Positions 4,619 to 24,388 of a stretch of DNA of 64,000 nt are shown here, piece after piece. The translations under genes and the position numbers were made by a program. The stretch spans positions 4,152-68,151 of the forward strand of contig JAYEIQ010000004.1 in the NCBI GenBank assembly GCA_034660175.1, written 5' to 3'. The notes beneath the pieces are model-generated. The model ran no database searches and was not told where the DNA came from. It saw only the letters and a list, made by a program, of their open reading frames with translations. The DNA comes from Patescibacteria group bacterium (GTDB lineage: Bacteria > Patescibacteriota > Minisyncoccia > Moranbacterales > DUUL01). The stretch's first letter is position 1; each line of letters starts with the position of its first letter.

Positions 4619-4645
4619 AGTTGAATACTTGGTCTGATTTTTGGA

Positions 4646-4666
4646 CAGCCTCCAGGCTGGTTTTCG
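4646..4666 (+). terminator. putative intrinsic terminator after PAPS synthase gene
   Basis: CAGCC-TCCA-GGCTG hairpin followed by GTTTTCG. Confidence 0.35.
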
Positions 4667-4739
4667 TTAGGAATGTGATATATAATGTTTTTTATAGCAG
4701 AAAAATAGAGAAGTGAACATCAAGCAGTAAACAAGTGCC

Positions 4740-5858
4740 ATGAAGGTTTTGTTGTTAAATTATGAATTTCCACCAATTGGAGGGGGTGCAGCCACTGCCA
4801 CCCTCAATTTATTGAGGGAGTTTTCCAAAAGAAACGATGTTGAAGTGGATTTGATCACTTCATCTGTTGATAAAGAGAGGCAGGAGCAATTCAGTGAGAA
4901 TATCAAGATATATTTTTTGGACATTGAAAAAAATGGAAGATTGCACAATCAATCCAATGCTGATCTTTTGAAATATAGCTGGAAGGCTTGGAGACTTGCA
5001 AGGAAGCTGAGAAAGGAGAAAAAGTATGATCTGATCCATTCGTTTTTTGGAATTCCGTGTGGATTCGTTGCGATGTTGTTAGGGATGTCATATGTTGTGT
5101 CACTGCGAGGGTCTGATGTTCCGTTCTACAGTGAAAAATACAAATTGTTGGACACTTTGCTTTTTCAAAGATTGAGCAGAAGAATCTGGAAAAAAGCAGA
5201 TGTTGTTATTGCGAACTCTGAAGGTTTGAAAAAACTTGCGTTAAAGAGCTCACCAAAGCAAGAAATTGGTGTGATTTACAATGGGGTGGATACGGAAATT
5301 TTTGCTCCATCACAAAAAAAGCCAGAGGAGTTCACAATTATTTCAACTTCAAGACTTGAAAAACGCAAAGGGCTTGAATTTTTAGTTGAAGGGTTTGGAA
5401 AATTTAACAAACAATACAAGGACAGTAGATTGATCTTGATTGGTGGTGGTGATCAAGAGAATAAGCTTAGAAAAATATCTCATGATTTGGGTGCTGAGAG
5501 TGTAGTTGATTTTGTGGGCGTTCTTGATTTAGGCGAGCTTTCAAAGTGGTATAAGAAAGTGGATGTTTTCTCGTTGCCTTCATTCAACGAAGGCATGAGC
5601 AACTCTCTTTTGGAAGCAATTGCAAGCGGGTTGGCAATTGTTGCGACTGACACTGGAGGAACAAAAGAGTTAATAAATGATTCAAACGGTATTATTGTTG
5701 AAAAAGGTAGCAGTGAGGATGTTTTCAGGGCGTTTGAGAAACTGTACACGGACAGGCAATTGCTTGAATCAATGAAAGAGAAAAGTCGAGAAAAAGCACT
5801 TGTGATGAGTTGGATAAATATGTCAAATCAGTATTTAGAGGTATATAAAAAAGTATAG
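4740..5858 (+). CDS. GT-B glycosyltransferase, family 4-like
   Basis: 372 aa; N-terminal EFPPIGGGAATATLNL (GT4 N-domain), C-terminal FSLPSFNEGMSNSLLEAIASGLAIVATDTGGTKELI (Glycos_transf_1 E-x7-E region). Confidence 0.8.
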   Translation: MKVLLLNYEFPPIGGGAATATLNLLREFSKRNDVEVDLITSSVDKERQEQFSENIKIYFLDIEKNGRLHNQSNADLLKYSWKAWRLARKLRKEKKYDLIHSFFGIPCGFVAMLLGMSYVVSLRGSDVPFYSEKYKLLDTLLFQRLSRRIWKKADVVIANSEGLKKLALKSSPKQEIGVIYNGVDTEIFAPSQKKPEEFTIISTSRLEKRKGLEFLVEGFGKFNKQYKDSRLILIGGGDQENKLRKISHDLGAESVVDFVGVLDLGELSKWYKKVDVFSLPSFNEGMSNSLLEAIASGLAIVATDTGGTKELINDSNGIIVEKGSSEDVFRAFEKLYTDRQLLESMKEKSREKALVMSWINMSNQYLEVYKKV

Positions 5859-5896
5859 AGCTAGCTCTATACCTAGCTCTATACCCATGTTATAAT
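5854..5896 (+). promoter_or_regulatory. operator-like repeat array plus extended -10 upstream of AbrB-like ORF
   Basis: 18-bp perfect palindrome TATAGAGCTAGCTCTATA (5854-5871) followed by a direct repeat of the half-site TAGCTCTATACC (5874-5885), then TGtTATAAT extended -10 (5888-5896) 27 nt upstream of start 5923. Confidence 0.4.
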
Positions 5897-5922
5897 CATG
5901 CTGTAGAATTGAAACGAAAACT

Positions 5923-6105
5923 ATGGCTCAAACAAAAAAAGAAGAAAGAATAACAAGAAAGCTTCAAAGAGTAGGTAGGGGGAGAACTTACAGCATCACA
6001 ATTCCAATCGAAATTATTCGTTCTTTTGGTTGGAAAGAAAAACAAAAGTTGGTTTTTGAAGCAGATAAAAGAAGAAATGTGATCAAGATCAGAGATTGGG
6101 AATAG
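5923..6105 (+). CDS. AbrB/MazE/SpoVT-type small DNA-binding protein (paralog of 601..759)
   Basis: 60 aa: ...RKLQRVGRGRTYSITIPIEIIRSFGWKEKQKLVFEADKRRNVIKIR matches swapped-hairpin AbrB N-domain pattern (R+V...-IP.E+R......+..+......I.I). Confidence 0.55.
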   Translation: MAQTKKEERITRKLQRVGRGRTYSITIPIEIIRSFGWKEKQKLVFEADKRRNVIKIRDWE

Positions 6106-6142
6106 AATATTAATTAATTTGGAGAGATAACAATAAACTTCA

Positions 6143-6859
6143 ATGTTGAAGCTGATTAAAGACAACTGGGCCAAACTAGCTGATCAATTGGCGGGCAAGA
6201 AGCTTTACTGGTTCAAGAGTCCTTCTGGGATCTTACTTCTGGGTGCCACCGAAAAGATCTTAAATAAATATTGTAGAGGAAAAGTTTTGGATGTTGGAGC
6301 AGGGAGATTGGCATACAAATCATTGCTAGAGAAACATTGCGAGGAATATAAAAGCATTGATTTTAAGGCAACCAGTCCTGAACTTGATTTTGTTGGTGAC
6401 GTACAAGACATGGAAGTTTTGAATGATGATCAATTTGACACAGTTTTTTGTTCTCAGGTACTGGAACATATTCCAGAACCTCAAAAAGCAATGAACGAGA
6501 TCAGTCGAATCTTGAAACGCGGTGGAAAGGCGATAATCTCAGTTCCTTTTTTGGGGTATTTACACAATGAGCCTTATGATTTTTTTCGTTATACGAAACA
6601 TTCTTTGAGATTTATTTCTAAGAGAGCGGGATTTGAAGTTGTGGAAATAAATGAGGTTGGTGGATTGTTTTCCTTTCTCGGCTACATTTGGTCTACTTTT
6701 TTTATTGGGTTATTTGCTGGAATTCCATTTTTGGGATATATAGTATTGTTAGTAAATATTCCGCTTTCATATTTTTTTATTTTACTTGATGTTGTTACGA
6801 TGAATAAGAAACTGATGCCATTGAACTATCTTTTTATTCTTAAAAAAAGGGATGTATAA
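6143..6859 (+). CDS. class I SAM-dependent methyltransferase with C-terminal hydrophobic segment
   Basis: motif I VLDVGAGRLAYKSL, FDTVFCSQVLEHIPEPQKAMNEISRILKRGGKAII (Methyltransf_11-like); C-terminal TM-like stretch. Confidence 0.7.
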   Translation: MLKLIKDNWAKLADQLAGKKLYWFKSPSGILLLGATEKILNKYCRGKVLDVGAGRLAYKSLLEKHCEEYKSIDFKATSPELDFVGDVQDMEVLNDDQFDTVFCSQVLEHIPEPQKAMNEISRILKRGGKAIISVPFLGYLHNEPYDFFRYTKHSLRFISKRAGFEVVEINEVGGLFSFLGYIWSTFFIGLFAGIPFLGYIVLLVNIPLSYFFILLDVVTMNKKLMPLNYLFILKKRDV

Positions 6860-7961
6860 AATAGGGTTTGTTGTAAGAGCAATAAACAAGGGTGGAGGTG
6901 TAAAAATGGTTGTAAAAAATTTGCTGAAAAAAATTGATTTGTTGATGTTCACAAAGAGAGATTTGCAATTCATTGTCTATGCTGACAAGGAATATGATTT
7001 CTTGAGAGGATTGAAAAATATTAAAGTGGAAATTATTAAAAAACACAATGTGCTGCTGTGGGATAATATTTATCTGTATTGGAAACTAAAAGGAGATGGT
7101 TTGGATTGTGTTGTTTATCCCAAAAATGTTATCCCTCCTTCAAATCTCTCTTTAAAGTGCAAAAAGATGATTATTGTTCACGATTTAGCACATTTCAAAC
7201 AAGGTCTTAATGCATATAAATTTTGGGATGTTGTTTATATGAAAATGATGATAGGTGCTTCTTGTAGAAAAAGCAACCATATATTTTCAATTTCAGAGTT
7301 TACTAAAGAGAAAATAGTGAAAGAATTTAACATGAATGAAAGTAAAATCACGGTAATTCATGAGGGGGTAGAAAAAAAATTCAAAGAAATAAATAACAAA
7401 AAATTATTAAGCGAGGTGGTTGATAAGTATGGATTACAATTGCCTTTTTTTCTATATCCTGGATCAATCAGCCCGCGGAAAAATATTCTCAGAATTTTGG
7501 AGGTTTTCAATAATATCAAACATGAGATTCCTCACATGCTCTATTTTACGGGAGCGCGAGGGTGGAAAAATAAAGAGGTTTGGGAATATATAAGAGAAAA
7601 AAATTTGCAAAAAAGAGTTAAAAAAATAGGATATGTCAAGGAGAATGAACTCCCAATCTTTTATAATCTTGCAGATCTGTGTTTGTATCCAAGTCTCTAT
7701 GAGGGTTTTGGGTTGCCTATTCTTGAGGCACAGGCATGTGGGTGTCCCGTATTGACGTCCAATGTTTCAAGCTTGCCGGAAGTTGCAGGAAATGGAGCTG
7801 CTATTGTTGATCCATACTCAACGGAAGATATAAAAAAAGGTATATTGAAAATACTCAGAGACGGTAAATATCGAGAGGTGTTGGTAAAAAGTGGTATGGA
7901 GAATGTAGGAAGGTATAGCTGGAAAACATCTGCGAAGAAGATTGTTGAAAAAGCATCTTAA
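6852..7961 (+). CDS. GT-B glycosyltransferase, family 4-like
   Basis: 369 aa; C-domain motif YPSLYEGFGLPILEAQACGCPVLTSNVSSLPEVAG; start overlaps upstream gene by 8 nt. Confidence 0.8.
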   Translation: MYKIGFVVRAINKGGGVKMVVKNLLKKIDLLMFTKRDLQFIVYADKEYDFLRGLKNIKVEIIKKHNVLLWDNIYLYWKLKGDGLDCVVYPKNVIPPSNLSLKCKKMIIVHDLAHFKQGLNAYKFWDVVYMKMMIGASCRKSNHIFSISEFTKEKIVKEFNMNESKITVIHEGVEKKFKEINNKKLLSEVVDKYGLQLPFFLYPGSISPRKNILRILEVFNNIKHEIPHMLYFTGARGWKNKEVWEYIREKNLQKRVKKIGYVKENELPIFYNLADLCLYPSLYEGFGLPILEAQACGCPVLTSNVSSLPEVAGNGAAIVDPYSTEDIKKGILKILRDGKYREVLVKSGMENVGRYSWKTSAKKIVEKAS

Positions 7962-7979
7962 ATTTAGGTAAAATCTTTT

Positions 7980-8864
7980 ATGGCAGAGAGTGATTTCAAA
8001 ATTGACTTTGTTGGTGTCGGGGCGGAAAAAGCGGGTAGTTCATGGGTTGCTGCCATGCTTGATGCGCATCCTGAAATTTGTCTTTCGCAACCGAAAGAAG
8101 TGCAGTATTTTAATGAAAAATCAAGTTATACAAGGGGATTGAATGCAAACTTCAACAAGGGTTTTGGTTGGTATGAAAAGCACTTTATCCATTGCAAAAA
8201 AAACTCAATTAAAGGTGAGTTTTCCACTGCCTATTTGCCAGATAAAACTGCTCCTAAAAAAATATTTCAGAGTTTTCCGGGAGTAAAATTGATCGTCTGT
8301 TTGAGAGATCCCGTTGATAGAATGTACTCCCAGTATTGGATGTATAAGAATTATTTTCTCAAAGAAAAAAGACCTTTTAGTGAGGTCGTGAGAGAGGAGA
8401 AAGAATATACAGAAAAAAGTCTGTATTTTAAACAGATAAAAGAATATCTGAAATATTTTTCACTTGAGAATATCCTATTTATAACACTTGATGAGATAAA
8501 GGAAAATCCGAAGATATGCCACAAAGCGTTATACAAGTTCGTTGGGACAAGGAATGTGGACTTTGTTCCAGGGAAAGGTGTCTTTGGGAGAAAAAATAAG
8601 GCGAAGAGAGTTAGATTTAGGTCTGGGCTTGTTCTAATTAACAGATTATCAAAGATATTCATATTTTTAGGTTTCTCTCGAGTTTTGAAAGTTCTTGTTA
8701 AGTACGGGTTCAAGGACTTTTGTTTGAGAATAATTTCGGATGAAAGTAGATATCCTCCAATAGACAAAGGATTGAGAAGCGAGTTGATTAAAAAATTTAT
8801 TTCTGATATTGACGATTTTGAGAGACTGACGGGAAAGAACTTAAGTTCATGGAAAAAAACATGA
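7980..8864 (+). CDS. sulfotransferase-family protein (PAPS-dependent, Sulfotransfer_3-like)
   Basis: N-terminal 5'-phosphosulfate-binding-like loop GVGAEKAGSSWVAAML (cf. PKSGTTW) and 3'-phosphate-binding-like RDPVDRMYSQYW; size and layout typical of bacterial sulfotransferases; co-located with PAPS synthase. Confidence 0.6.
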   Translation: MAESDFKIDFVGVGAEKAGSSWVAAMLDAHPEICLSQPKEVQYFNEKSSYTRGLNANFNKGFGWYEKHFIHCKKNSIKGEFSTAYLPDKTAPKKIFQSFPGVKLIVCLRDPVDRMYSQYWMYKNYFLKEKRPFSEVVREEKEYTEKSLYFKQIKEYLKYFSLENILFITLDEIKENPKICHKALYKFVGTRNVDFVPGKGVFGRKNKAKRVRFRSGLVLINRLSKIFIFLGFSRVLKVLVKYGFKDFCLRIISDESRYPPIDKGLRSELIKKFISDIDDFERLTGKNLSSWKKT

Positions 8865-9994
8865 GACATTCAAAAAAATTAAGAGTAGCTCTTTTGACGC
8901 CAGATTTTCCTCCAAACCCGCGAGGTGGTTGTGGTGTAAGTTCTAACTTACTTGTGCAAGAGCTTAGAAAGTTGGGTTTATGTGTTGATGTGTATAGAGT
9001 AGGAAAGAAGGAGATAGCAGAGAAAAGCTCAAGTGGCAACATTTATCACTTTGTTGGTTTTCGGAAAGTTCCTATGATCAATAATTTGTTTGCGGTTATT
9101 CTTCTTCGCGGGAGGCTAAAAAAATATGATATAATACATGTCTACAATATGAGTCTTATCCCTGCAGCTGTACTCCTGAAGGGGAGAGATTCAAAAATAT
9201 TTGCCACTATCAACAACACAAATGGAGCTGTCGCTAGTACCTTTGTTGGAAAAAGAAAATTCAAGAATAAGATTAATGACTGGTTAACAACGTGGATGAT
9301 TAAACTTTTTAGAGGTGGTGTAGATTGCTATATTGCGCTCACTGCTTTTTTGAGGAGGCTGTATATTGAAAATGGTTATGTTGGTCACAAAATCAAAATG
9401 GTGCCGAATATGTATGATGAAATTTTTGTGGCAAAGCGCAATAAAGAGAGCAGAAAAGATGGGCATGTAAGGATTTTGTACGTTGGTCAGCTTGGTGACA
9501 ATAAGGGCGTATTGGATTTAGCTGTAGTGTGTAAGGATTTGTTAAATGACAAAAAATGGAAAGATAAACTGAAGGTAAAAATAATAGGAGATGGAAAGTT
9601 GAGGGGGGTAATTGAGACAATTTTAAAGAGGGAGATAGAGAGTGGTTCGGTCGAGATCTTTAACGAGCAATATGAAGATCTCCCTGATGAATATTGGAAC
9701 TCAGATCTGCTTATTCATCCTGCAAAATGGGATGAGCCCTTTTCAAGAACCTGGCTTGAAGCCATGGCTTCAGAGTTACCCATTTTATCATCGGACAATT
9801 CTAGTGCCAAAGAAGTTCTTGCTGGTTATGCTATTTTTTTCAAAATGGGAGATAGAGAGAGTTTGAAAAGAGCCATGTTGGAATTTTTAAAAAACAAAAC
9901 AAGGGAAGACGACGGTTTTTTTGTTGAAAGATTTAACCCGAAGAAGGTAACGAATAAAATAGTAAAATATTATCAAATAGAACATGAAATATAA
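8849..9994 (+). CDS. GT-B glycosyltransferase, family 4-like
   Basis: 381 aa; N-domain LLTPDFPPNPRGGCGVSS; C-domain AKWDEPFSRTWLEAMASELPILSSDNSSAKEV; alternative start at 8861. Confidence 0.75.
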   Translation: MEKNMRHSKKLRVALLTPDFPPNPRGGCGVSSNLLVQELRKLGLCVDVYRVGKKEIAEKSSSGNIYHFVGFRKVPMINNLFAVILLRGRLKKYDIIHVYNMSLIPAAVLLKGRDSKIFATINNTNGAVASTFVGKRKFKNKINDWLTTWMIKLFRGGVDCYIALTAFLRRLYIENGYVGHKIKMVPNMYDEIFVAKRNKESRKDGHVRILYVGQLGDNKGVLDLAVVCKDLLNDKKWKDKLKVKIIGDGKLRGVIETILKREIESGSVEIFNEQYEDLPDEYWNSDLLIHPAKWDEPFSRTWLEAMASELPILSSDNSSAKEVLAGYAIFFKMGDRESLKRAMLEFLKNKTREDDGFFVERFNPKKVTNKIVKYYQIEHEI

Positions 9995-11198
9995 CATTCA
10001 CTACTTTAACGAGGCTTTGTATCCTGGCATGTCGGCAAATAAAGTTGCAAGAGTAGAGATGGCCAATTCATTCTTGAGGGTTGATAAGGTTGAAGGAGTG
10101 TTTTTTTGGTTTCTCAGTAATCGATATTTTTTTAACGAAAGGTCCTGTTTTGCAAATCAGTCACTGGATAAAGGGGTTACCCCTAAGAGAGTTTGGGTAC
10201 CTTTTTTCTCTGACCCTCTTGAAGTGACTGGAACAAAGATTGATAAGGCTGTCAGATTTGTAACAAAAAGGGTATTGTTTCTATGGGCTCTAGTTTTTTT
10301 TGCTATAAAAAGATTTGAAAAAAGTGACCTGGTTTTCATTAGAGGAGAACAATTTGTTCTTGCTTTTTGTCTGGGGGCTTTATTGAAAAATGTGAAATTT
10401 TCTTTTGAAGTTCACAATTATGAATTCGGAAAATTTTTTTTAAGAGATTTTCTCTATAGGAGAGCCAGCAAAAAGGCGAACGTTATAATTGTCATATCTG
10501 GCTATTCAAGAAATCACATGGTCAGAAATGGTGGTATCAAAAGCAGTGCAATTGTGAACCTTCCAAGCGGAGTTAATATCCAGAGATTCTCTGAACTTAG
10601 TGGAGACAATGCAGACTATGATTTAAGATTGGAGATTGGTGCTAGAGAAAATGCTAAAATAGCCATCTATACTGGAAGTTTACATAAGAACAGAGGGATA
10701 GAAGACATTTTGTTCTGTGCTAAAAAAACTCCCAACATCGAATTTGTTATTGTGGGAGGTAATAAGAGTCAAATAGAAGAGTATTTATCAAAACCTGATG
10801 GTGATGCAAAAAATATTCATTTTGTTGGCTATAAATCTAATAAATTGATTCCATCTATTGTAAGTCAAGGGGACGTATTGTTGGCGCCATATTCAAAAAA
10901 AATTAAAACTGTTATGCATATGAGCCCAGTGAAACTTTTCGAATATGCAGCAGCTGAAAAACCAGTGGTGGTTTCTAATATATCAGCTATAAGAGAGATT
11001 TTCAACGATGACGAGGTTAATTATTTTACTCCTGATGATAGGCGTGATTTGCTGAGATGCACAAGAGAAGTTTTCGATAACTATGATGTTTGTCTAGCTA
11101 AAGCAGGAAGGGCAAAAAGAAAAGCTGAGCTCCATTCTTGGGATAATCGAGCGAAAACAATCTTTAAATTATTAAAGAAGGATAATGAACAAAAATAA
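9984..11198 (+). CDS. GT-B glycosyltransferase, family 4-like
   Basis: 404 aa; C-domain APYSKKIKTVMHMSPVKLFEYAAAEKPVVVSNISAIREIF (Glycos_transf_1-like); overlaps neighbours at both ends. Confidence 0.7.
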   Translation: MKYNIHYFNEALYPGMSANKVARVEMANSFLRVDKVEGVFFWFLSNRYFFNERSCFANQSLDKGVTPKRVWVPFFSDPLEVTGTKIDKAVRFVTKRVLFLWALVFFAIKRFEKSDLVFIRGEQFVLAFCLGALLKNVKFSFEVHNYEFGKFFLRDFLYRRASKKANVIIVISGYSRNHMVRNGGIKSSAIVNLPSGVNIQRFSELSGDNADYDLRLEIGARENAKIAIYTGSLHKNRGIEDILFCAKKTPNIEFVIVGGNKSQIEEYLSKPDGDAKNIHFVGYKSNKLIPSIVSQGDVLLAPYSKKIKTVMHMSPVKLFEYAAAEKPVVVSNISAIREIFNDDEVNYFTPDDRRDLLRCTREVFDNYDVCLAKAGRAKRKAELHSWDNRAKTIFKLLKKDNEQK

Positions 11199-11910
11199 AT
11201 TTGATTTGCAGAATAATCAATACAATTTTCCATATCACTATCTTGTTAATTTGAGAGAATATTCGAACTATAAGGAGCTTTCCTGGGGAATAATTTACTA
11301 TGCTTATATGAAGTATACAGTAGGGTATGTTTATAAGTCGGGCTGTAAATCATTGTTAGACGTTGGCTGTGGTGATGGGAGGTTGATAAGTGAGCTTGCT
11401 TCCAGTGATAGCAGTGGGAGTTATGTGGGGGTGGATCTCTCCGAATCGGCTATATTGTTGGCCAAGGCAATGAACCAGAATCTTAAGAATGCTAAGTTCT
11501 TACTGAAAAATGTTGGTCAGATAGAGGGAGAGTTCGACATCGTTGTGTTGAATGAAGTCTTGGAGCATATTCCTGACGAAGATCTTGGTGTTTTTACCGG
11601 GAACGTCATGAATAAGGTTAAATCAGGTGGTGTGTTAATAGTAACTGTCCCTTCGGTTAACGTGAAACTCAACGAGAAACATTTTAGGCATTATAATCTT
11701 GAGATGCTAAGAAAGCAGTTCGAGAAATTAAAATTACTAGAGAATGAAACAAAATATCTTTTTAAGAAAAATCTTTTTTACAAAATAATTAGAATATTTG
11801 CAAAAAGATTTAGATGTCCAAAATTGGAGTTGTTTCTGGCAAAAAAATTTTTATTTAATGCCAGAGATAAAAACTGTACCGACATTTTTGTTGTTTTTAA
11901 AAGAAAATGA
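11185..11910 (+). CDS. class I SAM-dependent methyltransferase
   Basis: LLDVGCGDGRLISELA (motif I), FDIVVLNEVLEHIPDED, SGGVLIVTVP. Confidence 0.7.
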   Translation: MNKNKFDLQNNQYNFPYHYLVNLREYSNYKELSWGIIYYAYMKYTVGYVYKSGCKSLLDVGCGDGRLISELASSDSSGSYVGVDLSESAILLAKAMNQNLKNAKFLLKNVGQIEGEFDIVVLNEVLEHIPDEDLGVFTGNVMNKVKSGGVLIVTVPSVNVKLNEKHFRHYNLEMLRKQFEKLKLLENETKYLFKKNLFYKIIRIFAKRFRCPKLELFLAKKFLFNARDKNCTDIFVVFKRK

Positions 11911-11913
11911 ACC

Positions 11914-12810
11914 ATGAGTAATAATTTTATTAGAAGAACTTGTTGTCCTGTTTGTGGAGGAAGAAAGAGAAGGGCTATTTATTTAAAGTCTTTCTCAGAT
12001 GACGATATTTGGGATTATTTGAATGAATTCTATGAGTCGAAAATCTCCAAGGACATTATAAAAGATGATTTTTACAGCATTGTAAAGTGTAAGAATTGTA
12101 GTTTGTTGTACCAGGAGTATATACTCAGTGATAAAAACATGTATTTGCTGTATGAAAATTGGATTTCCGCAGAAAGTAGTCTCCAGAAGAAAATGGTCTC
12201 TGATATTAAATTGTTTGAACAGTATGTTCTTGAGCTTAGGAGAATTTATTTGTTTCTCAAAAAGATGCCACATGAGATTAATGTTTTGGAGTATGGAATG
12301 GGGTGGGGATTCTGGTCAAGATTGGCCAAAGCATTAAATTTTAAAGTAACTGGAGTTGAGCTTTCCGAATCCAGGGTTGAATTTGCTAGGAGGAATGGAG
12401 TTAAAGTGATTGATGATATAAAAAAAGAATTGGATTGTGTTTATGATTATGTTTATTCGAATCAGGTTTTTGAGCATCTAACAGAACCAAAGAAAGAATT
12501 GATTGAATTGGCTAGAGTTTTGAAGCCAGGAGGCATTATAGATATCAAGGTTCCTAATTGTCAAAATTTTGAGAAAAAATTTGGTAAAATTAATTGGAGA
12601 TTAGGATCAAAACCAGTTCATCCACTAGAGCACATAAACTGTTTCAGTCGTCAATCTTTGAAGATATTAGCTAATCAAGCCAAGCTAAGTCTTGTTAGGC
12701 GTCCGTATTCTTTCGCGTGCTTCGGGATAAATTCATGTATAAAGGGTCATATCGAGTATATTAACGATGCATTTTTTTCAACAAACGTTTATATGAGGAA
12801 GAATAAGTAG
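11914..12810 (+). CDS. SAM-dependent methyltransferase with N-terminal Cys4 zinc-ribbon
   Basis: CCPVCGG ... CKNC zinc-ribbon; MTase motifs VLEYGMGWGFWSRLA, VFEHLTEPKKELIELARVLKPGGII. Confidence 0.65.
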   Translation: MSNNFIRRTCCPVCGGRKRRAIYLKSFSDDDIWDYLNEFYESKISKDIIKDDFYSIVKCKNCSLLYQEYILSDKNMYLLYENWISAESSLQKKMVSDIKLFEQYVLELRRIYLFLKKMPHEINVLEYGMGWGFWSRLAKALNFKVTGVELSESRVEFARRNGVKVIDDIKKELDCVYDYVYSNQVFEHLTEPKKELIELARVLKPGGIIDIKVPNCQNFEKKFGKINWRLGSKPVHPLEHINCFSRQSLKILANQAKLSLVRRPYSFACFGINSCIKGHIEYINDAFFSTNVYMRKNK

Positions 12811-12831
12811 TAAGAGTATAAAGAAAGTGTC

Positions 12832-14145
12832 ATGAAGAAAACAAAGAAGTGGATTAAAAACAGATTGGGAACCAAAAACAGGGAAAGATTTTTTTTTCTT
12901 TTCAGGCTAATCAAATATCTCAGGAAACAGACAAGGAGAATTTTCAGAGATCTTGGATCTGATGGTAGGTCAGAATTATTGCTTCCTAGTGAAGAATATT
13001 TCATTGAAGACAAGAATGTCTTTTTCGGTTATTATGATAAAAGTCCTTTTAGTGATAATGGAGAAGTTATTCTGGTACAAGTTGCTAAAGGTCAAAACAA
13101 ACATCCTCAAGTGGGTGATGAATTGATTGTTGGCTTTTTTTGCAGGCAGGCAGGCTCTTCTGGAAGAGGAATTGTTGAGTTAGGCAGGACTACCACATGG
13201 TGCTGGCAACAAGGTTGCAGATTGCAGTGGTTTCCTGGGGATGGGAGCAAAAAAATTATCTACAACAAATTGATAAATAAACGGTTTTCCTCGGTGGTTC
13301 AAGACACAGAAAGCAAAAGAGTGGTTAAGTCGCTTAGTTTTCCTGTGTATGATGTTGATCCAAGCGGGTCTTGTGCCTTAACATTGAGTTTTTCCAGACT
13401 ATATCGGTTAAGGCCAGGGTATGGCTATGCTGGGATTATTGATGAGACAATAGATGAAAAGATACCGTCTAGTGATGGAATCTGGCTTGGAAATATCAAG
13501 AAAAACGAAAAGAGTCTTTTATTAAGTTTAGAAAAAATTTCACAGATGGATTGGAATGAGAAGATGGTTGGGGCACAGCACTATGTAAATTTTATTTCTT
13601 ACAACAAGGATGGTAGTAAGTTTGCTTTTTTGCACGTTTGGGAAGGGGGGGAGGGGAGATCTGTGAGGTTAATGATTTTTGATTTTGCAAGAGGTGAGCT
13701 ATCTGTTGTTGGACAAGGTCATGAGATGGTTTCTCATTACTCTTGGATTGATGATAGTTCAATAATTTTTACATCATTAGCGAAAAAAGGATATGGAATA
13801 TACTACACATACAATACAATCTCAAAAGAAACTATAGTTGTAGGGGGGAACGAACTGACTGGAGACGGGCATCCGAGTGCTTGTGGTGATTCCTCTCTTT
13901 TCATTACAGACACGTCTGCTGATGAATATGGTGAGCGAAAATTGATTCTATTCGATGGACTTAAGGGCAAAAAGAGAGAACTTTTTAGGTTAGTCGATCC
14001 GATTGGATTTTGGGGTGAGGTGAGGTGTGACTTCCATCCAAGGTGGGATAGTTCTGGGCGCTATGTTTGTATTGATTGTCCTGTAAGTGGGAAAAGGAGA
14101 ATGTCGGTTTTTGATCTCAGTGTTGTTCTGAGGGATTTTTCTTGA
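12832..14145 (+). CDS. hypothetical protein (possibly beta-propeller-like), part of glycan island
   Basis: 437-aa ORF, no confident family; repeated hydrophobic/Gly-Asp turns; contains in-frame G7 tract at 13645-13651. Confidence 0.4.
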   Translation: MKKTKKWIKNRLGTKNRERFFFLFRLIKYLRKQTRRIFRDLGSDGRSELLLPSEEYFIEDKNVFFGYYDKSPFSDNGEVILVQVAKGQNKHPQVGDELIVGFFCRQAGSSGRGIVELGRTTTWCWQQGCRLQWFPGDGSKKIIYNKLINKRFSSVVQDTESKRVVKSLSFPVYDVDPSGSCALTLSFSRLYRLRPGYGYAGIIDETIDEKIPSSDGIWLGNIKKNEKSLLLSLEKISQMDWNEKMVGAQHYVNFISYNKDGSKFAFLHVWEGGEGRSVRLMIFDFARGELSVVGQGHEMVSHYSWIDDSSIIFTSLAKKGYGIYYTYNTISKETIVVGGNELTGDGHPSACGDSSLFITDTSADEYGERKLILFDGLKGKKRELFRLVDPIGFWGEVRCDFHPRWDSSGRYVCIDCPVSGKRRMSVFDLSVVLRDFS

Positions 14146-17461: not shown

Positions 17462-18427
17462 CTACCATATCATTTTTTTCAACTTTCTCAATGCTTGTTT
17501 GGTTGTTGGTTTTTTAGTTAAGTTGATGGTAATTGAGCTAATAGAATTTTCAGGGATTCCATACACGAAGATGGAATAAGAGTTTCCTGCTAAATCTAAC
17601 TTGTCTCTCTCGAGTTTTCCATTACACACAACTTGTTTATCTTCAGGAAATAGGAGACAAGGAATGTTTTTTGTGTCTTTTTTTTTGATACTATTAGTTT
17701 CTATGAACGCAAAATTTTTCCAGACTCTTGAAATTAAATTTTCAGAAAACAAAGGGTACAAATTATTTGACCCAGTAATGAAATAATCATTTCCAGCTTT
17801 AACAATTAATCCACTTGGATATATTTTGTCTTTCTTTCTAAAATTCAAATTATCTCCTATTTCTAGGGTATTTAAAATTTCTTTGTTGACCGATATGATA
17901 TTCTTTTTATCAAATCCCATTTCTTTGAAAGTGGTAATTGACTGGAATGGTCTTAATTTTCCTTTCTCAATAAAATAAAGTACTCTATTACTTTTAAGAA
18001 TGCTCCCATTTGGATATTTTGAGTGATTGTTTTCGAAGAGTCTGTTTTTTACTTGTTGAGTTTCAGTTAGCATGTTTCTTCTGTGAATTAGCATCGGCTC
18101 AAGTGTTTTTGTTGCGTGAACCTCAATTTCTGAAAAATCAAAATCTTCTTTTGGCTCAATGAGGATTTCAAATTCTACTAAATCCTCGTTTGATATCACG
18201 GAAACCACATTATGTGTGAGAAAAGAGTCTTTATTAAAAACATAATACTCTTTTATCGGAAGGGTAGTGCTTGTTAATACCACAGAAGCCACTAAAAATA
18301 GACCACCAGAATAAATAAAACGTCTTAGAAGAGTGGATTTTTTTCTTTCATTCATTGACTGTAGCATCAGTCGTATTTTACTTTTTGTAATTCTAGATGT
18401 ATTTGACATATTTAGAGGATACAACAA
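17462..18427 (-). CDS. hypothetical membrane-anchored protein
   Basis: 321 aa, single N-terminal TM (LFLVASVVLTSTTL), no recognisable domain. Confidence 0.4.
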   Translation of the reverse strand: MLYPLNMSNTSRITKSKIRLMLQSMNERKKSTLLRRFIYSGGLFLVASVVLTSTTLPIKEYYVFNKDSFLTHNVVSVISNEDLVEFEILIEPKEDFDFSEIEVHATKTLEPMLIHRRNMLTETQQVKNRLFENNHSKYPNGSILKSNRVLYFIEKGKLRPFQSITTFKEMGFDKKNIISVNKEILNTLEIGDNLNFRKKDKIYPSGLIVKAGNDYFITGSNNLYPLFSENLISRVWKNFAFIETNSIKKKDTKNIPCLLFPEDKQVVCNGKLERDKLDLAGNSYSIFVYGIPENSISSITINLTKKPTTKQALRKLKKMIW

Positions 18428-18531: not shown

Positions 18532-19716
18532 TTAAGGAATCACTGCATCATCGATGTGAAAATATCTGTCAGCGTTGGTCTTAATGACGAACAGCGAACG
18601 TTCATTCCTGCGGTGTAACACAAAGATGTCATAGGAACTTCCAAGATTGATACTGTACTGGAATCTGTCGTGCCAGTCTCCATCAAAACCTTGACTAGCG
18701 TACTTTATGTATAGCTTCTTTTTGTCTGTTCTGAAGACACCAATGTCCATTTGATCGTCGGAGTCCCAATAGCCCAGAACGGGAACAGCAAGTGGTCCAC
18801 CTGAATTATATGGTTCAGAATCCCAGTCACCCAATCCGTTTTGAGCATCATCGATGTGAAAATATCTGTCAGCGTTGGTCTTAATGACGAACAGCGAACG
18901 TTCATTCCTGCGGTGTAACACAAAGATGTCATAGGAACTTCCAAGATTGATACTGTACTGGAAGATGTCGTGCCAGTCTCCATCAAAACCTTGACTAGCG
19001 TACTTTATGTATAGCTTCTTTTTGTCTGTTCTGAAGACACCAATGTCCATTTGATCGTCGGAGTCCCAATAGCCCAGAACGGGAACAGCAAGTGGTCCAC
19101 CTGAATTATATGGTTCAGAATCCCAGTCATCAAGTTGAGGCGTAGTAGATGCTTGTGCTGGTTCACTGTCGCTTCCATCGACTATTCCATCACCGTCGGA
19201 GTCATCGTCCAAGATGTTGATGTATCCATCACCGTCAATGTCGGTGCTCCAAGTTGAGCCATGCGTGATCCAGAAATCGATTTCGTCATCATCGTTTATC
19301 CCATCATTATCAGTGTCATCAAGGTATTTGTCTGTTCCGTAAAGATGAATCTCTTCATAGTCGAGAAAAGAATCAGCGTCATTATTCCATGTTGGAACGT
19401 GAAGTTCATTTGAGAACACACTATCACCGTCAAAATTGAAAGCAACCACAATGAAATAATAGTCCTGTTCCGGATCGAGAACTGCTGGTAGAGTGAAACT
19501 TGTGTCCAAGTCGCATGTGTCGATCTCGGAGTCATAAATTTCGTCTGCTCCACCACCGCTCTCATTGTCATATAAAAGCTTATAACCGATTGGAGCATCT
19601 CCAGTAGTTGGAGCATCCCAGGAAAAGGTTGGGGTTAATGTTGCCATGGTTGGTTGTGCCAACAGCAAGAAAATAACTGTCAGGCACAGTAGCCAAATTT
19701 GCTGAATTCGCTTCAT
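18532..19716 (-). CDS. secreted protein with fibronectin-III-like N-domain, thrombospondin-type-3 Ca-binding repeats and two FG-GAP/VCBS-like C-terminal repeats
   Basis: signal peptide MKRIQQIWLLCLTVIFLLLAQPTMA; DTDNDGINDDDE, DIDGDGYINILDDDSDGDGIVDGSD (DxDxDG); duplicated 100-aa unit LGDWDSEPYNSGGPLAVPVLGYWDSDDQMDIGVFRTDKKKLYIKY... Confidence 0.6.
   Translation of the reverse strand: MKRIQQIWLLCLTVIFLLLAQPTMATLTPTFSWDAPTTGDAPIGYKLLYDNESGGGADEIYDSEIDTCDLDTSFTLPAVLDPEQDYYFIVVAFNFDGDSVFSNELHVPTWNNDADSFLDYEEIHLYGTDKYLDDTDNDGINDDDEIDFWITHGSTWSTDIDGDGYINILDDDSDGDGIVDGSDSEPAQASTTPQLDDWDSEPYNSGGPLAVPVLGYWDSDDQMDIGVFRTDKKKLYIKYASQGFDGDWHDIFQYSINLGSSYDIFVLHRRNERSLFVIKTNADRYFHIDDAQNGLGDWDSEPYNSGGPLAVPVLGYWDSDDQMDIGVFRTDKKKLYIKYASQGFDGDWHDRFQYSINLGSSYDIFVLHRRNERSLFVIKTNADRYFHIDDAVIP
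18545..19137. repeat. 300-bp-period tandem duplication (2 copies, 2 mismatches) inside secreted-protein gene
   Basis: 18545-18837 equals 18845-19137 except 18664-18665 (tc) vs 18964-18965 (ga); read directly from sequence. Confidence 0.9.
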
Positions 19717-20058
19717 ACTCGATTACCTCCTTTCGTGGATTTTTTTTGTTGATTTCCTTTTACTTTCATCTTAATTACCTCTCTTTTTCCTAAAAAGTTT
19801 GTGGGTCTCGAACAAAAAAACATTTCATTCCTGAAACACGGTAATACCACAGTTGGCAAATTTTCAAGGAACAACAAAAACATAGAACTTTTGTTCCAAA
19901 GAACTGTACTTTCTTTCCATCCTCCCTTGCTTCATATTATAGCTCTTTCTTTCAAATTTACAACATTTTGGAATAGATGGAGATATCTTCTTGGATCAGT
20001 TTCAATGAAAAGTGGAAGCGCGCCTAAGGATTTCCTTAAACGCGCTTCTTTGGTTTTT

Positions 20059-20973
20059 TTATTGATCATATTTGTCTTTTGATGCCACGAAGAAAAACTC
20101 AGCTGAATCTGCAAAAGCTCCAGTTGGTGAAACTGCTCTGATAACGAAATAATAGCCAATTTTTTCTTTCAGTTTTTTCACTAGGGCTGTTGTTTTCAGA
20201 GTCTCAACTTCCCACAGGTTGTAGTTATAGGGTTTGTTTTTTTCTCTGGAATAGATTCTATACCTCGTAGGTCTTGAAGTGTGGCCCGAAGTGTGGCCCG
20301 GATCCCATTTAAGAGTGGCTTGGCATTTGCCGTTCCGAAAGTCGCTTGCCACTTTTGTCTTTTTAAAGAGATGCACGAAGGCGTGTTGTCCACTTGAAAG
20401 TAAGGCTTGCGAAGTTTGGAATAGGGAAGTGATTCTTCTAATCTCATGGTCTTTTCCGTCTGGAATGCCATCGTTATCAGAATCCTTGTCTAAAATGTTT
20501 ATCTTTCCGTCTTCGTCAAAATCAATATTCCATTTTTTTCCCCAAGTTGCATATTCCTCACCGTCGGGGATTCCGTCATCATCTGAATCCTTTTTGTTTG
20601 GTAGAGTGTGTGTGACTTGTTTCTCAAACTCATCGGTGAGGCCGTCGTTATCAGAATCCAGATCGTCACTGGTCCAGAGAATGATAATTTCGCTTGAATA
20701 CACATGATCTCCGTCGATTTTTGCAGAGATGAAATTTGGAGAGTTTACTTGCAGTGGCAATTTTCCGATGTTAATTGCCAACGTTTTCTTTTTACAATGA
20801 AACTTTTCGCTATACTTGTGACTTTCAATGCCAATATAGATTGTACAATCTGATTCTGAGACTGGTCTACTGCCTATGTCTTCCCAATCCAATTTCATTT
20901 CTTGGGAATTTGCTGCAGAAGCAATTATCAGTAAGACAATTGCAAAACTGATGACTTTTGAGATCATTTCCAT
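20059..20973 (-). CDS. secreted thrombospondin-type-3 repeat Ca-binding protein with FN3-like domain (paralog-like of 18532..19716)
   Basis: signal peptide MEMISKVISFAIVLLIIASAANS; DLDSDNDGLTDEFE, DSDDDGIPDGEEY, DFDEDGKINILDKDSDNDGIPDGKD; 12-bp in-frame tandem duplication GAAGTGTGGCCC x2 at 20276-20299 (GHTSGHTS). Confidence 0.55.
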   Translation of the reverse strand: MEMISKVISFAIVLLIIASAANSQEMKLDWEDIGSRPVSESDCTIYIGIESHKYSEKFHCKKKTLAINIGKLPLQVNSPNFISAKIDGDHVYSSEIIILWTSDDLDSDNDGLTDEFEKQVTHTLPNKKDSDDDGIPDGEEYATWGKKWNIDFDEDGKINILDKDSDNDGIPDGKDHEIRRITSLFQTSQALLSSGQHAFVHLFKKTKVASDFRNGKCQATLKWDPGHTSGHTSRPTRYRIYSREKNKPYNYNLWEVETLKTTALVKKLKEKIGYYFVIRAVSPTGAFADSAEFFFVASKDKYDQ

Positions 20974-21288: not shown

Positions 21289-23181
21289 TCAGTTAACGGA
21301 TTTTTGTACATGTTCAAATTGGTTGAATCCAATAATACTGGTTGTGCGTTTTTCTCCATGGACTTGCACGACGGTTGCATATTCAGGCAAATATCCTCTT
21401 TTTTGAGGTTTGTCCTGATGCATGTCGTTATAACCGAACCCCGTTGGCTCCGTATATGCCAGCACGATTCTTTTCCCGTTTATCGGGAAAAGCACATGAT
21501 TGGGGAATGGGTCTGTTACAAGTTCATGCCAAATCGGGAGCAGTGGCACTACATGTCCGATACTTCCATAATCTAAAGATACTAAGGCAAAGACGTTGTT
21601 GATATCCCGCAAAGTTGGATGCTCGGAAGCGACAAAATAGGCTGCTCCTGAGATTGCATGTCCTTCACAGTCTTCTCCTCTGTTAAACAGTGCCACCAAA
21701 GGAGACATCGGAATCTCAATTGGTCCATTGTATCCAGGCTTACTTTTATCACCTTTGTGGTCAGAGACATAGGGGAGGTTTTCGACGATGAACTTCATTT
21801 GTCTTTCCTCGGCTTCCTGCGGAGTTTGAGCGTCGCCAATGATCTTGTCGGCGATTTGGGTCAGGCGGGCAGTTTTGGTGACATATGGTGAAAAATCATA
21901 TCCGATGTGTGAATTGTGACTGTTGCCACGCGAAGCATAGATTTTCTTGTTTTGCCCTTGTCTGTTTTTACGAACCTGTTGGATCTCATCAAGGATGTCT
22001 TGCATGGTAATGTCAACAGCACCGTCAGCTAACAAGATCGGATCGTCATCTTCCATTCTGAAAAGGTAGGAAAAAGGGATAATAATAGATTGATCCGGTT
22101 GGTGGCTACCCCAAAAACAAAGCTCGTGGTTAGAATTTGTTACTGAAACAGGTACACCAACAACAATGTTCTTTTTACCGAATTCCCATTTGGGATCCAA
22201 TTGGTTTTTGGCCAAGTGAACAATGACATGTTCAACATCTAATTTCTTTTTGTAGATGAAGCGGGTTTGCAGACCTTTGCCGATAATCTCAATGGCAGAT
22301 GGTTCGATGTAGATGCCATATGAGATAGCATAATTTCTTGCAATAACCCATTGTGTTTTTTCGATATCCCATTGTCCGGTTTTGTGGTCGCAAAGGTTAC
22401 TGAAACTATAGAACGCGACCGGCAGTGATTCTTCCGGTTCCACTGAAGGCGCTCCAAGTTCCAAATCAATTCGGTTTTTTCTCCACATTCCATGGGTGTT
22501 GGGACGCAGGCAGAGCCAGGTGTCTTCGGGTTTGACAAGGCGTGTCTGTCCATCGGCAAACTTACGTTTAAAACCTTTTTCCAGGCCTTGCATTCTGTCG
22601 AGCTTCAGAAACGGCTCCATCATGTGACTTTTGACGTTGTGCACATTTCCTGTCACGACCTTGAACTGTCCATAGGGAATGATTTGAAATGCCATTGCCA
22701 AGTTTTCAGAGCCTACGACTTCGGTCATCTTTTTGCCGATCTTCAAGAGGCGAGACTGGGAGACCCAGTCGGTTGCTGGATAGTTCAAGTAGCTCATCGC
22801 AACGTTATACCCGGCGAATCGCAAAGCATCCAAGTCGGTTCCCAATTTTTCACCGTTGCCTTTTTTCACAATGGAAATTGTATCACCAAAAGAAAATATC
22901 CCTTTGACAAAATTTGCGAAGTTTTCCCGCTTTGTAATACGGAAATTCAACGGTTTGTCTGGTGCAGTTGCATAAGCGAGACCGCACACTCCTTTGTACG
23001 AATCGAAATAGCTCCCTGTGTGTTGCAATAAATGATTTCCGGTCATGATTCCAACCAACAGAAATGCCGCTGATACGATTGTCACAAGGCGGAGTTTTTC
23101 CCACAAATTGACCTTCTGAATTCCTTTCGATTCTGGAGAGAATTTAACCTTCTTCCAGGGCTTCTTTTCTAAGTAAGACAT
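21289..23181 (-). CDS. hypothetical membrane-anchored protein (630 aa), compositionally atypical
   Basis: long ORF with one N-terminal TM (LRLVTIVSAAFLLVGIMTG); visibly GC-richer codon usage than flanks; no family recognised. Confidence 0.45.
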   Translation of the reverse strand: MSYLEKKPWKKVKFSPESKGIQKVNLWEKLRLVTIVSAAFLLVGIMTGNHLLQHTGSYFDSYKGVCGLAYATAPDKPLNFRITKRENFANFVKGIFSFGDTISIVKKGNGEKLGTDLDALRFAGYNVAMSYLNYPATDWVSQSRLLKIGKKMTEVVGSENLAMAFQIIPYGQFKVVTGNVHNVKSHMMEPFLKLDRMQGLEKGFKRKFADGQTRLVKPEDTWLCLRPNTHGMWRKNRIDLELGAPSVEPEESLPVAFYSFSNLCDHKTGQWDIEKTQWVIARNYAISYGIYIEPSAIEIIGKGLQTRFIYKKKLDVEHVIVHLAKNQLDPKWEFGKKNIVVGVPVSVTNSNHELCFWGSHQPDQSIIIPFSYLFRMEDDDPILLADGAVDITMQDILDEIQQVRKNRQGQNKKIYASRGNSHNSHIGYDFSPYVTKTARLTQIADKIIGDAQTPQEAEERQMKFIVENLPYVSDHKGDKSKPGYNGPIEIPMSPLVALFNRGEDCEGHAISGAAYFVASEHPTLRDINNVFALVSLDYGSIGHVVPLLPIWHELVTDPFPNHVLFPINGKRIVLAYTEPTGFGYNDMHQDKPQKRGYLPEYATVVQVHGEKRTTSIIGFNQFEHVQKSVN

Positions 23182-23204: not shown

Positions 23205-23600
23205 TTATTTTTTTGTAAAACTGGTTAGAACAGTGCTATCCCAAGCAACTCTTAATTTTTTGCCGTCAGAATGCTTTTCAATTTTGGCTGATAGCGCTGT
23301 GTTCTTGATTCGATCAACGTATCCATAAGGAATGTCTTCTTCGATCATGGCAATTACTTGAACTTGCTGAACTCCTTCGTTGAATGACGATTGGATGATA
23401 TTTGAGAGTTCTCTGGTTTCAACGTAACGACCATTACATTTGGTTCCGTAGTCTCCTTCTGTTTTTTCGATGAAAATGTGAATTTTTGGAACGGGCCTAT
23501 CGCTAGCATTGGATTCCTTGGTCTCGACTTGAGCAGCGATCAGAAAAGCAATACAAAGCAACATGAATGTATCTAGGAATACCCAAATTGTTTTTTTCAT
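23205..23600 (-). CDS. ExbD/TolR-family protein
   Basis: likely start at MKKTIWVFLDTFMLLCIAFLIA (single N-terminal TM followed by about 100-aa periplasmic domain), typical ExbD/TolR size; ORF track's longer 168-aa version overlaps upstream gene. Confidence 0.5.
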   Translation of the reverse strand: MKKTIWVFLDTFMLLCIAFLIAAQVETKESNASDRPVPKIHIFIEKTEGDYGTKCNGRYVETRELSNIIQSSFNEGVQQVQVIAMIEEDIPYGYVDRIKNTALSAKIEKHSDGKKLRVAWDSTVLTSFTKK

Positions 23601-24388
23601 TGATTTCTCCTGTTTTCTGCAATTCGGAAGAGCACCAAAACGGTCTTCAATTGGATATTCTTCTCCGAGATAATTGCTTGGGTCAACGTTGAAATGACAA
23701 CTCTTGCCCAAATGGCAAAAACTGTTGTTCCAATGGCATTGCCAACGCCGGCAAACATCGAAACTCCTCCGGCTTTGCTGAGAGTTGCCTCTGCAAGTCC
23801 AAGAGCGGTTCCAAGTAATCCGAGAAGAGGTAGCAGATCTTCCAAGTTCCCAAGTATTTTTGTGCCTTGAAATGTTCTTTCCTCCAGATATCCTTCCAGG
23901 CTAGATTTCACCTCATCAGACCAGTCTGAATGTTCAGAAGTTGCAAACTTTCTAAAGTGCTTCACAAAAAGTGATTTTGCGAAATACTTTTTGGCTGGGA
24001 TCTCTACTCTTGAGAAATCAATGCCATCTTGGTCGACCACCATTTTCTCAACCAACTTTGCTTCTCTTGAAGTATTGATTGAGAGTAGTATTGATCCAAT
24101 AATACCAATGATCGAAAGCAGTACAATGGGGAACATTAACCAGTTTTTTAAGGCGATGAACGCCAAGTGTTGAACAATTGCCATTTTTCCCAAAAGAAAA
24201 GATGAGCAGAACAATACCATAAGTATTGTCCAATATTTCATGGTAAAAATTGCTGATTGAGAAACTTCTTTCCTCATCCTTTTTTTGGTTGTTCTAGGTT
24301 CGTCTTTCACTTTAATTGTCAATTCAGCTTCTTTTGCTCTCATGTTCTCCACCTCTCTTTTGTTGACGTGATATATTTTTTCAACCAA
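23597..24388 (-). CDS. MotA/TolQ/ExbB-family proton-channel protein
   Basis: C-terminal LLPLLGLLGTALGLAEATLSKAGGVSMFAGVGNAIGTTVFAIWARVV matches ExbB/TolQ/MotA conserved TM2-TM3; true start may be internal. Confidence 0.6.
   Translation of the reverse strand: MVEKIYHVNKREVENMRAKEAELTIKVKDEPRTTKKRMRKEVSQSAIFTMKYWTILMVLFCSSFLLGKMAIVQHLAFIALKNWLMFPIVLLSIIGIIGSILLSINTSREAKLVEKMVVDQDGIDFSRVEIPAKKYFAKSLFVKHFRKFATSEHSDWSDEVKSSLEGYLEERTFQGTKILGNLEDLLPLLGLLGTALGLAEATLSKAGGVSMFAGVGNAIGTTVFAIWARVVISTLTQAIISEKNIQLKTVLVLFRIAENRRNQ

Follow-up and report, generated by a model that had tools for sequence, protein, structure and literature searches.

Structure of the locus and of the repeat

The stretch of DNA analysed here (the window) comprises 64,000 nucleotides (nt), or 64 kilobases (kb), of contig JAYEIQ010000004.1 from the metagenome-assembled genome (MAG) of a Patescibacteria group bacterium (assembly GCA_034660175.1, positions 4,152 to 68,151, forward strand). 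An open reading frame (ORF) on its minus strand, at 18532-19716, encodes a protein of 394 amino acids (aa) which consists, from the N-terminus, of a signal peptide-like segment, an FN3-like domain, an Asp-rich TSP3-like region and two units of 100 aa. Those two units are encoded by an almost perfect tandem repeat, and the nature, age and copy number of this repeat are the subject of the present analysis. The gene and the parts of the repeat, numbered by window position, are the following.

18532-19716, minus strand: gene for the 394-aa multi-domain protein, predicted to be secreted; ORF translation, identical to MEA2006628.1
18845-19129, minus strand: N-terminal copy (copy 1) of the 285-nt repeat, encoding DWDSEP...HIDDA; the variant codon, 18964-18966, is ATC (Ile)
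18830-18844, minus strand: junction between the copies, 15 nt, unique, in frame, encoding QNGLG and derivable from neither flank
18545-18829, minus strand: C-terminal copy (copy 2) of the 285-nt repeat; the variant codon, 18664-18666, is AGA (Arg); VIP and the stop codon come next

An initial annotation of this DNA had placed a near-perfect tandem duplication at these positions, and three comparisons agree with it. When the sequence is compared base by base at an offset of 300 nt, the segments 18545-18829 and 18845-19129 (285 nt each) are identical at 283 of 285 positions. Tandem Repeats Finder returns a single array over 18545-19129, with a period of 300, 2.0 copies, 99% matches, 0 indels and a score of 1156, while blastn recovers the 285-nt pair with an expect value (E) of 7e-146. 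No other high-identity direct repeat of at least 40 nt is present within the 64-kb window. A third, diverged copy upstream was also considered and rejected: the 27-nt match at 19327-19353 (74% identity) is a short seed of the kind expected by chance, and no further copy in the window is detected by tblastn.

The only mismatches between the copies are at one adjacent pair of bases, 18664-18665 (TC) as compared to 18964-18965 (GA). Past 18829 and 19129 identity is lost at once, with 5 mismatches in 8 nt (18830-18837 against 19130-19137), and the two segments of 293 base pairs described in the initial annotation therefore differ at 7 positions rather than 2. The period of 300 nt and the two mismatches hold for the core, but the near-identical block is 285 nt long. 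The 15-nt junction occurs once in the window; it matches the sequence before copy 1 at 4 of 15 positions and has no match to the sequence after copy 2 either. The arrangement is thus 285 + 15 + 285 rather than a plain 300 + 300. In the protein, the copies correspond to aa 197-291 and aa 297-391, QNGLG joins them, and the repeat is in frame throughout, ending 3 codons before the stop, so that the ORF translation confirms the in-frame doubling of a 100-aa unit at the C-terminus. The exchange between Ile and Arg, which had been noted before, is real, and its order can now be given: Ile (ATC) belongs to the N-terminal copy and Arg (AGA) to the C-terminal one.

The copies share 94 in-frame codons with about 56 synonymous sites, and no synonymous difference is found between them. 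As 0 of about 56 synonymous sites differ, the duplication, or else its last homogenisation, is extremely recent, in agreement with the earlier description of the duplication as very recent, to which only the second possibility has to be added. The sole variant codon (ATC in copy 1, AGA in copy 2) differs at two adjacent bases, and the chance of two independent substitutions falling on adjacent bases is roughly 2/285, which makes a single tandem-base mutation the simpler reading. With an A before and a T after them (aTCt, aGAt), TC and GA also form a reverse-complementary pair, and a 4-nt micro-inversion is a possible alternative origin of the difference. Either of these two events fits better than two independent substitutions.

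Nature of the duplicated unit

No Pfam family is found on the 100-aa unit even at E<=10, nor on the C-terminal 203 aa at E<=0.01, and NCBIfam likewise assigns no family to the repeat unit. One unit was therefore used as the query of an exhaustive phmmer search against 1.84 billion representative proteins, of which 477 matched at E<=1e-3, every one of them through residues ~11-55 of the unit. The matched regions of these remote homologues are themselves tandem repeats with a period of 42-51 aa, and the homologues carry Pfam FG-GAP_3/FG-GAP, FG-GAP_3 being the present name of what used to be the VCBS family (PF13517). FG-GAP_3 is matched by 18 of 22 four-repeat segments, with a best E of 2.5e-30. 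A profile of 354 homologue repeats in turn matches the protein studied here at aa 202-245 (E 4e-16) and aa 302-345 (E 2e-16), and nothing else in it. On the strength of the 477 remote matches and of the repeat profile, the first half of the unit is, as judged from sequence, a divergent propeller blade of the VCBS/FG-GAP_3 type. Its loop, YWDSDDQMD (within GYWDSDDQMD), corresponds to DWDGDGKTD in the family: of the four loop Asp residues it retains three, Tyr stands in place of the first, and Asp in place of the loop Gly. In the second segment the Asp loop is missing, and HRRNERS is found at its position. The two halves are placed as follows.

18982-19113, minus strand: VCBS/FG-GAP_3-like blade of copy 1, aa 202-245, PYNSGGPLAVPVLGYWDSDDQMDIGVFRTDKKKLYIKYASQGFD, from the 354-repeat profile; equivalent in copy 2 at 18682-18813
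18844-18981, minus strand: second half of the unit in copy 1, aa 246-291, putative degenerate blade, from the MAFFT register and AlphaFold; equivalent in copy 2 at 18544-18681

In the MAFFT alignment, the second half falls in register with canonical blades of the homologues, and the invariant Gly in INLGSSYDIFVL is aligned to FQWGxxGDIPV. An AlphaFold model of the C-terminal 203 aa, computed with a 23-sequence alignment, has a predicted local distance difference test score (pLDDT) of 64 and a predicted template modelling score (pTM) of 0.57, and contains four similar three-strand segments. The second half has three strands like the first, but at lower confidence (pLDDT 57-67). Alignment and model together suggest that the second half of the unit is a degenerate blade, and two blade-sized segments, not a single FG-GAP domain, are the best reading of the unit. 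The earlier label of an FG-GAP/VCBS-like unit is thus appropriate for residues ~11-55, which are remotely homologous to FG-GAP_3/FG-GAP repeats, but it does not extend to the unit as a whole, on which Pfam is silent and whose second half is unmatched.

In most homologues the array has 5-6 detectable repeats, and in 131 of 148 proteins it lies at the C-terminus. It was also observed that these arrays (P0003-P0151) are attached to diverse N-terminal domains, e.g. PKD, Ig, NosD/beta-helix, Kelch and peptidase C13, and that several homologues, such as P0009 and P0013, have no Pfam match at all.

Origin and copy number of the duplication

Considering the above, we estimate the probability at roughly 75% that the locus carries a genuine, very young in-frame tandem duplication in the gene for a secreted protein with a blade module of the VCBS/FG-GAP_3 lineage. 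The second copy would have been made by replication slippage or unequal recombination, the duplicated piece amounting to 95 codons plus a 5-codon linker, and later change would have been limited to one tandem-dinucleotide mutation (ATC to AGA or the reverse). By this step the module would have passed from two blade-like segments to four, in the order canonical, degenerate, canonical, degenerate. Since the period is 300 nt, further unequal exchange of the RecA type would add or remove whole units while keeping the frame. By comparison with relatives, the blade module could form the head with which a calcium-stabilised protein, secreted or on the surface, binds a ligand or glycan. Doubling of the module would multiply or complete the binding surface, and a function as lectin or adhesin is suggested on the same grounds.

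A number of results weigh against this interpretation. The junction agrees with the flank at only 4 of 15 positions, which indicates a history more complex than one simple step, and a plain 300-nt duplication of existing flanks was rejected for the same reason. No second allele is present among the 5.8 billion protein clusters, no related locus was confirmed in GTDB species genomes or JGI metagenomes, and a contig look-up by exact product gave no record. For the second half of the unit, no homologue among the phmmer matches covers the region beyond residue ~75; its similarity to the first half and to the family consensus is not significant (Smith-Waterman shuffle p = 0.77 and 0.23, respectively), and its score against the family profile equals that of shuffles. 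That the second half can be demonstrated to be a blade by sequence was thus rejected on the basis of the shuffles and the profile score, and its assignment comes from structure and alignment. The AlphaFold model is of moderate confidence and leans towards a propeller, because its alignment was built from homologues with four canonical blades, and Foldseek of the model against the PDB returns nothing at E<=0.001. Finally, the protein has four segments, whereas 5-6 are detectable in its relatives, and VCBS propellers (Pfam PF13517, with a DxDxDG loop) are typically 7-bladed (PMC8023676).

The mismatch at the junction is compatible with two histories, in which either a filler was inserted at the junction during the duplication, or an older duplication had its core recently converted. 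According to the latter, the copies were kept or made identical by gene conversion, and the 285-nt block is the conversion tract. The abrupt end of identity at both edges of the block is what would be expected of such a tract, as is the contrast between the linker, which differs from the sequence before copy 1 at 11 of 15 positions, and the core, which differs at 2 of 285. The residues before each copy are weakly alignable by eye (AQ...L[D/G]DW), as if an older homology extended past the tract. Furthermore, the first base of the block is at codon position 3 and its last base at position 2, and the final Ala codons differ synonymously (GCT and GCA). At the nucleotide level, however, the similarity of the flanks is that expected by chance (4/15), the same observations also follow from a duplication that received a short filler at its junction, and no other genome by which the duplication could be dated was found in searches of protein clusters, GTDB species genomes and JGI metagenomes. 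We therefore regard an old, converted duplication as somewhat unlikely.

The assembled sequence points to a copy number of exactly two, and a locus with three or more units, collapsed by a short-read assembler to the minimal path which holds the junction once, is an unlikely alternative for which there are nevertheless several arguments. A unit of 300 nt exceeds the k-mers commonly used in assembly and comes close to the length of a short read; short-read assemblers usually pass through such a loop the fewest times possible, and its copy number would probably not be resolved. With three units there would be six blade-like segments, in line with the usual size of the family, given that the homologue arrays mostly have 5-6 repeats, and the closest solved relative of the family, UmbA4, is six-bladed. 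Pereira and Lupas also caution on the assembly of identical blades (PMC9218822). Against a collapse, each assembled copy has its own variant (Ile or Arg), which fits a two-copy path using every edge of the graph once, and no positive evidence for extra copies was found.

The opposite error would be that the assembler placed two strain alleles (Ile and Arg) of a single genomic unit one after the other, and it is very improbable. The contig does come from a MAG, and the copies differ at one codon only, as two alleles could, but the unique in-frame 15-nt junction, with its plausible Gly/Asn-rich linker, cannot come from joining the alleles of a single-copy locus, since reads must join the end of a unit to the start of a unit at this very junction. 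The repeat also lies inside a 97.6-kb contig, away from the contig ends, and repeats tend to be collapsed by de Bruijn assemblers rather than created by them. A collapse of more than two copies is thus a more plausible error than a single-copy artefact, and the reads should be consulted before the number of copies given by the deposited MAG is relied upon. Lastly, programmed variation, be it through the template and variable repeats of a diversity-generating retroelement or a phase-variation switch, can practically be dismissed: while near-identical repeats in a surface-protein gene with an exclusively non-synonymous difference would suit it, the copies are in tandem and both translated in one ORF, ATC and AGA do not follow the adenine-specific pattern of retroelements, no reverse transcriptase or recombinase domain occurs among the neighbouring ORFs scanned (1.4-26 kb), and a change by a 300-nt unit leaves the frame unswitched. 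With neither the adenine pattern nor a nearby reverse transcriptase found among these ORFs, both the retroelement target and the phase-variation readings were rejected.

The host gene and its neighbourhood

The 394-aa protein is a 100% full-length match to NCBI MEA2006628.1, deposited as 'MAG: fibronectin type III domain-containing protein' of a Patescibacteria group bacterium, and MEA2006628.1 forms a single-member cluster. The deposited name misses the divergent VCBS-like blade module. In a word-index search of 5.8 billion clusters, the only close homologues of the whole protein were itself and one partial match, P0002, which is limited to the Asp-rich region; this whole-protein search would have returned variants of the protein with one or three copies. 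The gene is a well-formed one, an orphan, in a Patescibacteria genome. Its signals and its domains upstream of the repeat are listed below, in the direction of transcription.

19936-19963, minus strand: promoter-like TTGTAA-16-TATAAT, 10/12, from a consensus scan (pattern match only), downstream of the terminator hairpin of the neighbouring gene
19726-19731, minus strand: Shine-Dalgarno sequence AGGAGG, 9 nt before the ATG at 19716, read from the sequence
19642-19716, minus strand: signal-peptide-like N-terminus, aa 1-25 (MKRIQQIWLLCLTVIFLLLAQPTMA/T, the slash marking the putative cleavage site), from the translation; cleavage and secretion predicted
19399-19629, minus strand: FN3-like domain, aa 30-106, Pfam fn3 (PF00041) with E 1.2e-4 and 22.6 bits as compared to a cut-off of 25 bits
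19162-19389, minus strand: Asp-rich TSP3-like region (DxDxDG-type), aa 110-185, from homology to the neighbouring protein and P0002
18472-18504, minus strand: terminator-like perfect 16+16 hairpin with a T-rich tail, 28 nt past the stop

The terminator hairpin of the preceding gene is at 20015-20048 on the minus strand, so that the gene is flanked by such hairpins on both sides. Its GC (guanine plus cytosine) content is 0.44, while the mean of the window is 0.38. A single-sequence AlphaFold model of the whole protein is unusable (pLDDT 38), and its only confident helix is that of aa 2-19 (pLDDT about 80-85), which is hydrophobic and precedes TMA/T. This is consistent with the protein having been called secreted, and secretion is predicted on that basis. 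The best sequence match of the FN3-like region in the PDB is the FN3 domain of neogenin (E 0.021).

Over 100 aa, the Asp-rich region shares 41% identity with the protein encoded next to it at 20059-20973 (tblastn E 4.9e-12), and it is 53% identical to the TSP3 part of P0002, while on the protein itself the bacterial TSP3 repeat TSP3_bac (PF18884) remains below the gathering score (E 0.26, 11.6 bits). The earlier designation as a Ca-binding repeat protein can be retained in so far as Asp-rich motifs of the TSP3 type are present, as recognised through the neighbour, which has a significant TSP3_bac match; calcium binding, like secretion, is thereby predicted from sequence. The neighbour (minus strand, 304 aa, secreted-looking) has TSP3 repeats (TSP3_bac E 3.4e-8, 33.6 bits) followed by a C-terminal FN3-like domain, a domain order different from that of the protein studied here, and weak matches to MtsC and CglD. 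It also contains a perfect 12-nt tandem repeat at 20276-20300, encoding GHTSGHTS.

Both genes belong to a minus-strand block, together with those for a weakly matching flippase-like protein, a PMT_2/Agl23-like membrane glycosyltransferase, two orphans and a MotA/ExbB-like protein. The ORFs flanking the surface-protein genes, at 17462-18427 (minus strand, 321 aa, TTG start) and 21289-23181 (minus strand, 630 aa), have no match in Pfam or NCBIfam. Upstream lies an operon-like run on the plus strand (1419-14145) with a fusion of PfkB and inositol-monophosphatase-family domains, an ATP sulfurylase/adenosine 5'-phosphosulfate (APS) kinase, a sulfotransferase, four GT4 glycosyltransferases and three methyltransferases. 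Its gene content suggests a glycan-modification cluster, for a glycan that is both sulfated and methylated. In this run, the Inositol_P domain fused to the PfkB kinase may be a 3'-phosphoadenosine 5'-phosphate (PAP) phosphatase, the bifunctional ATP sulfurylase/APS kinase corresponds to synthesis of 3'-phosphoadenosine 5'-phosphosulfate (PAPS), the sulfotransferase is a Sulfotransfer_1 protein, and the methyltransferases are dependent on S-adenosylmethionine (SAM). Little is understood of the surface proteins of Patescibacteria, for which a role in attachment to host cells is assumed. The gene lies in a cell-envelope neighbourhood, which is consistent with a putative surface role of its product.

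Some further observations were made in the window. The MotA/TolQ/ExbB-like membrane protein is encoded at 23597-24388 on the minus strand (Pfam E 3.2e-5) and overlaps by ~115 nt the listed start of a 168-aa ORF at 23205-23711 (minus strand, no family), the TTG start of which is probably listed too far upstream. The plus-strand GC skew is positive in nearly all 2-kb bins and drops to ~0, with slightly negative values in two bins, at the minus-strand genes of 18-24 kb, and GC content ranges from 0.31 to 0.43 over the window. A purine-rich low-complexity tract of the AAAGAAG type (49895-50012) and a (GACGAT)x9 repeat (50409-50464) are found within or next to the ORF at 49815-50477, and would encode Lys/Glu-rich and Asp-rich runs, respectively.

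Comparison with known systems

With its Asp-rich DxDxDG-type motifs, its FN3-like domain and its predicted secretion, the protein resembles bacterial TSP3/FN3 surface proteins (PF18884), such as MtsC and CglD of Myxococcus. It differs from these in having no MYXO-CTERM or lipoprotein features, and its own TSP3 match is not significant. Tandem-repeat surface adhesins in which recombination changes the copy number, such as the streptococcal alpha C protein and those with staphylococcal Bap-type repeats, provide a second point of comparison. They have in common with this locus long, near-identical in-frame repeats in the gene of a secreted or surface protein, among which unequal exchange would keep the frame. 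The present gene has two copies, however, and its repeats encode segments like propeller blades and not the Ig-like modules of a stalk.

Compared to VCBS/FG-GAP_3 (PF13517) and FG-GAP (PF01839), the first half of the unit aligns to the ~47-aa repeat consensus and keeps its Gly and hydrophobic strands, whereas neither of these Pfam models reaches any threshold on the protein and every second segment is without the loop. The family profile matches only one solved chain, the propeller of UmbA4 (PDB 9oee, E 1.1e-5, repeats GDFNGDGRDDVAVW). The protein alone has no match to 9oee at E<=10, and the profile match is driven by the homologues. UmbA4 is a secreted component of the umbrella toxin particles of Streptomyces coelicolor and has a six-bladed C-terminal propeller lectin, with pockets on or between the blades which bind teichuronic acid, a glycopolymer in the cell wall of the target bacterium (PMC13274773). 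Its six blades are differentiated, it has trypsin-like and bulb-lectin domains besides, and it belongs to a toxin particle; nothing of this is found in the protein studied here. A surface protein of an episymbiont could plausibly function in a manner analogous to UmbA4, and this does not imply membership of the same group.

The closest parallel is that of recently amplified beta-propellers. That propeller blades are still being amplified is well documented, with cases of blades that are 100% identical and of blade numbers that vary among VCBS-like propellers (PMC9218822; PMC8023676), and the examples given by Pereira and Lupas in 2022 include Nostoc Npun_R6612 and the VCBS-like propellers of cyanobacterial chitinases, with 3, 4, 6 or 9 blades (PMC9218822). 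The VCBS lineage is the second most sampled family among highly repetitive propellers, and a two-blade amplification unit was found once in that survey, in a fungal WD40 NACHT protein (PMC9218822). As in those cases, near-identical tandem repeats coding for blades are found within one gene, at both protein and DNA level, and local amplification alters the number of blades in otherwise similar proteins. Here, on the other hand, the unit is ~100 aa long and made of two mutually dissimilar blade-sized segments, there are four segments in total, and the host is a Patescibacteria MAG; a literature search combining Patescibacteria and FG-GAP found no paper. Pereira and Lupas define amplification by consecutive blades with a median pairwise identity above 60%. 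Adjacent segments are dissimilar at this locus, the ~99% identity holds only between the two-segment units, and the definition thus applies in spirit, with a two-blade unit only.

One could go further and see here a propeller caught at birth, a two-segment fragment having just been doubled into a four-bladed VCBS-type propeller or into a fragment that has to oligomerise in order to close, possibly the copy-number-variable lectin head for a host glycan. This is a speculative extension which we hold to be improbable. If it were true, it would be the second documented amplification of two blades, with no earlier one in the VCBS lineage or in a prokaryote, and a four-bladed VCBS-type propeller is a form not known to have been described. 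A cell of an episymbiotic Patescibacteria could use such a variable lectin head for attaching to the surface glycans of its host. Irrespective of this, the locus is a clean example of the known growth of domains by tandem duplication, and no new mechanism or system is implied. What appears less usual, judging from the alignment and the model, is an amplification unit of two dissimilar blade-sized segments, with a total of four segments only. Among the known cases of propeller amplification, the locus adds an example with a two-blade unit, which is rare in the main survey, and in it a domain can be seen, in Patescibacteria, to have grown by tandem duplication while the divergence of the copies is still practically zero.

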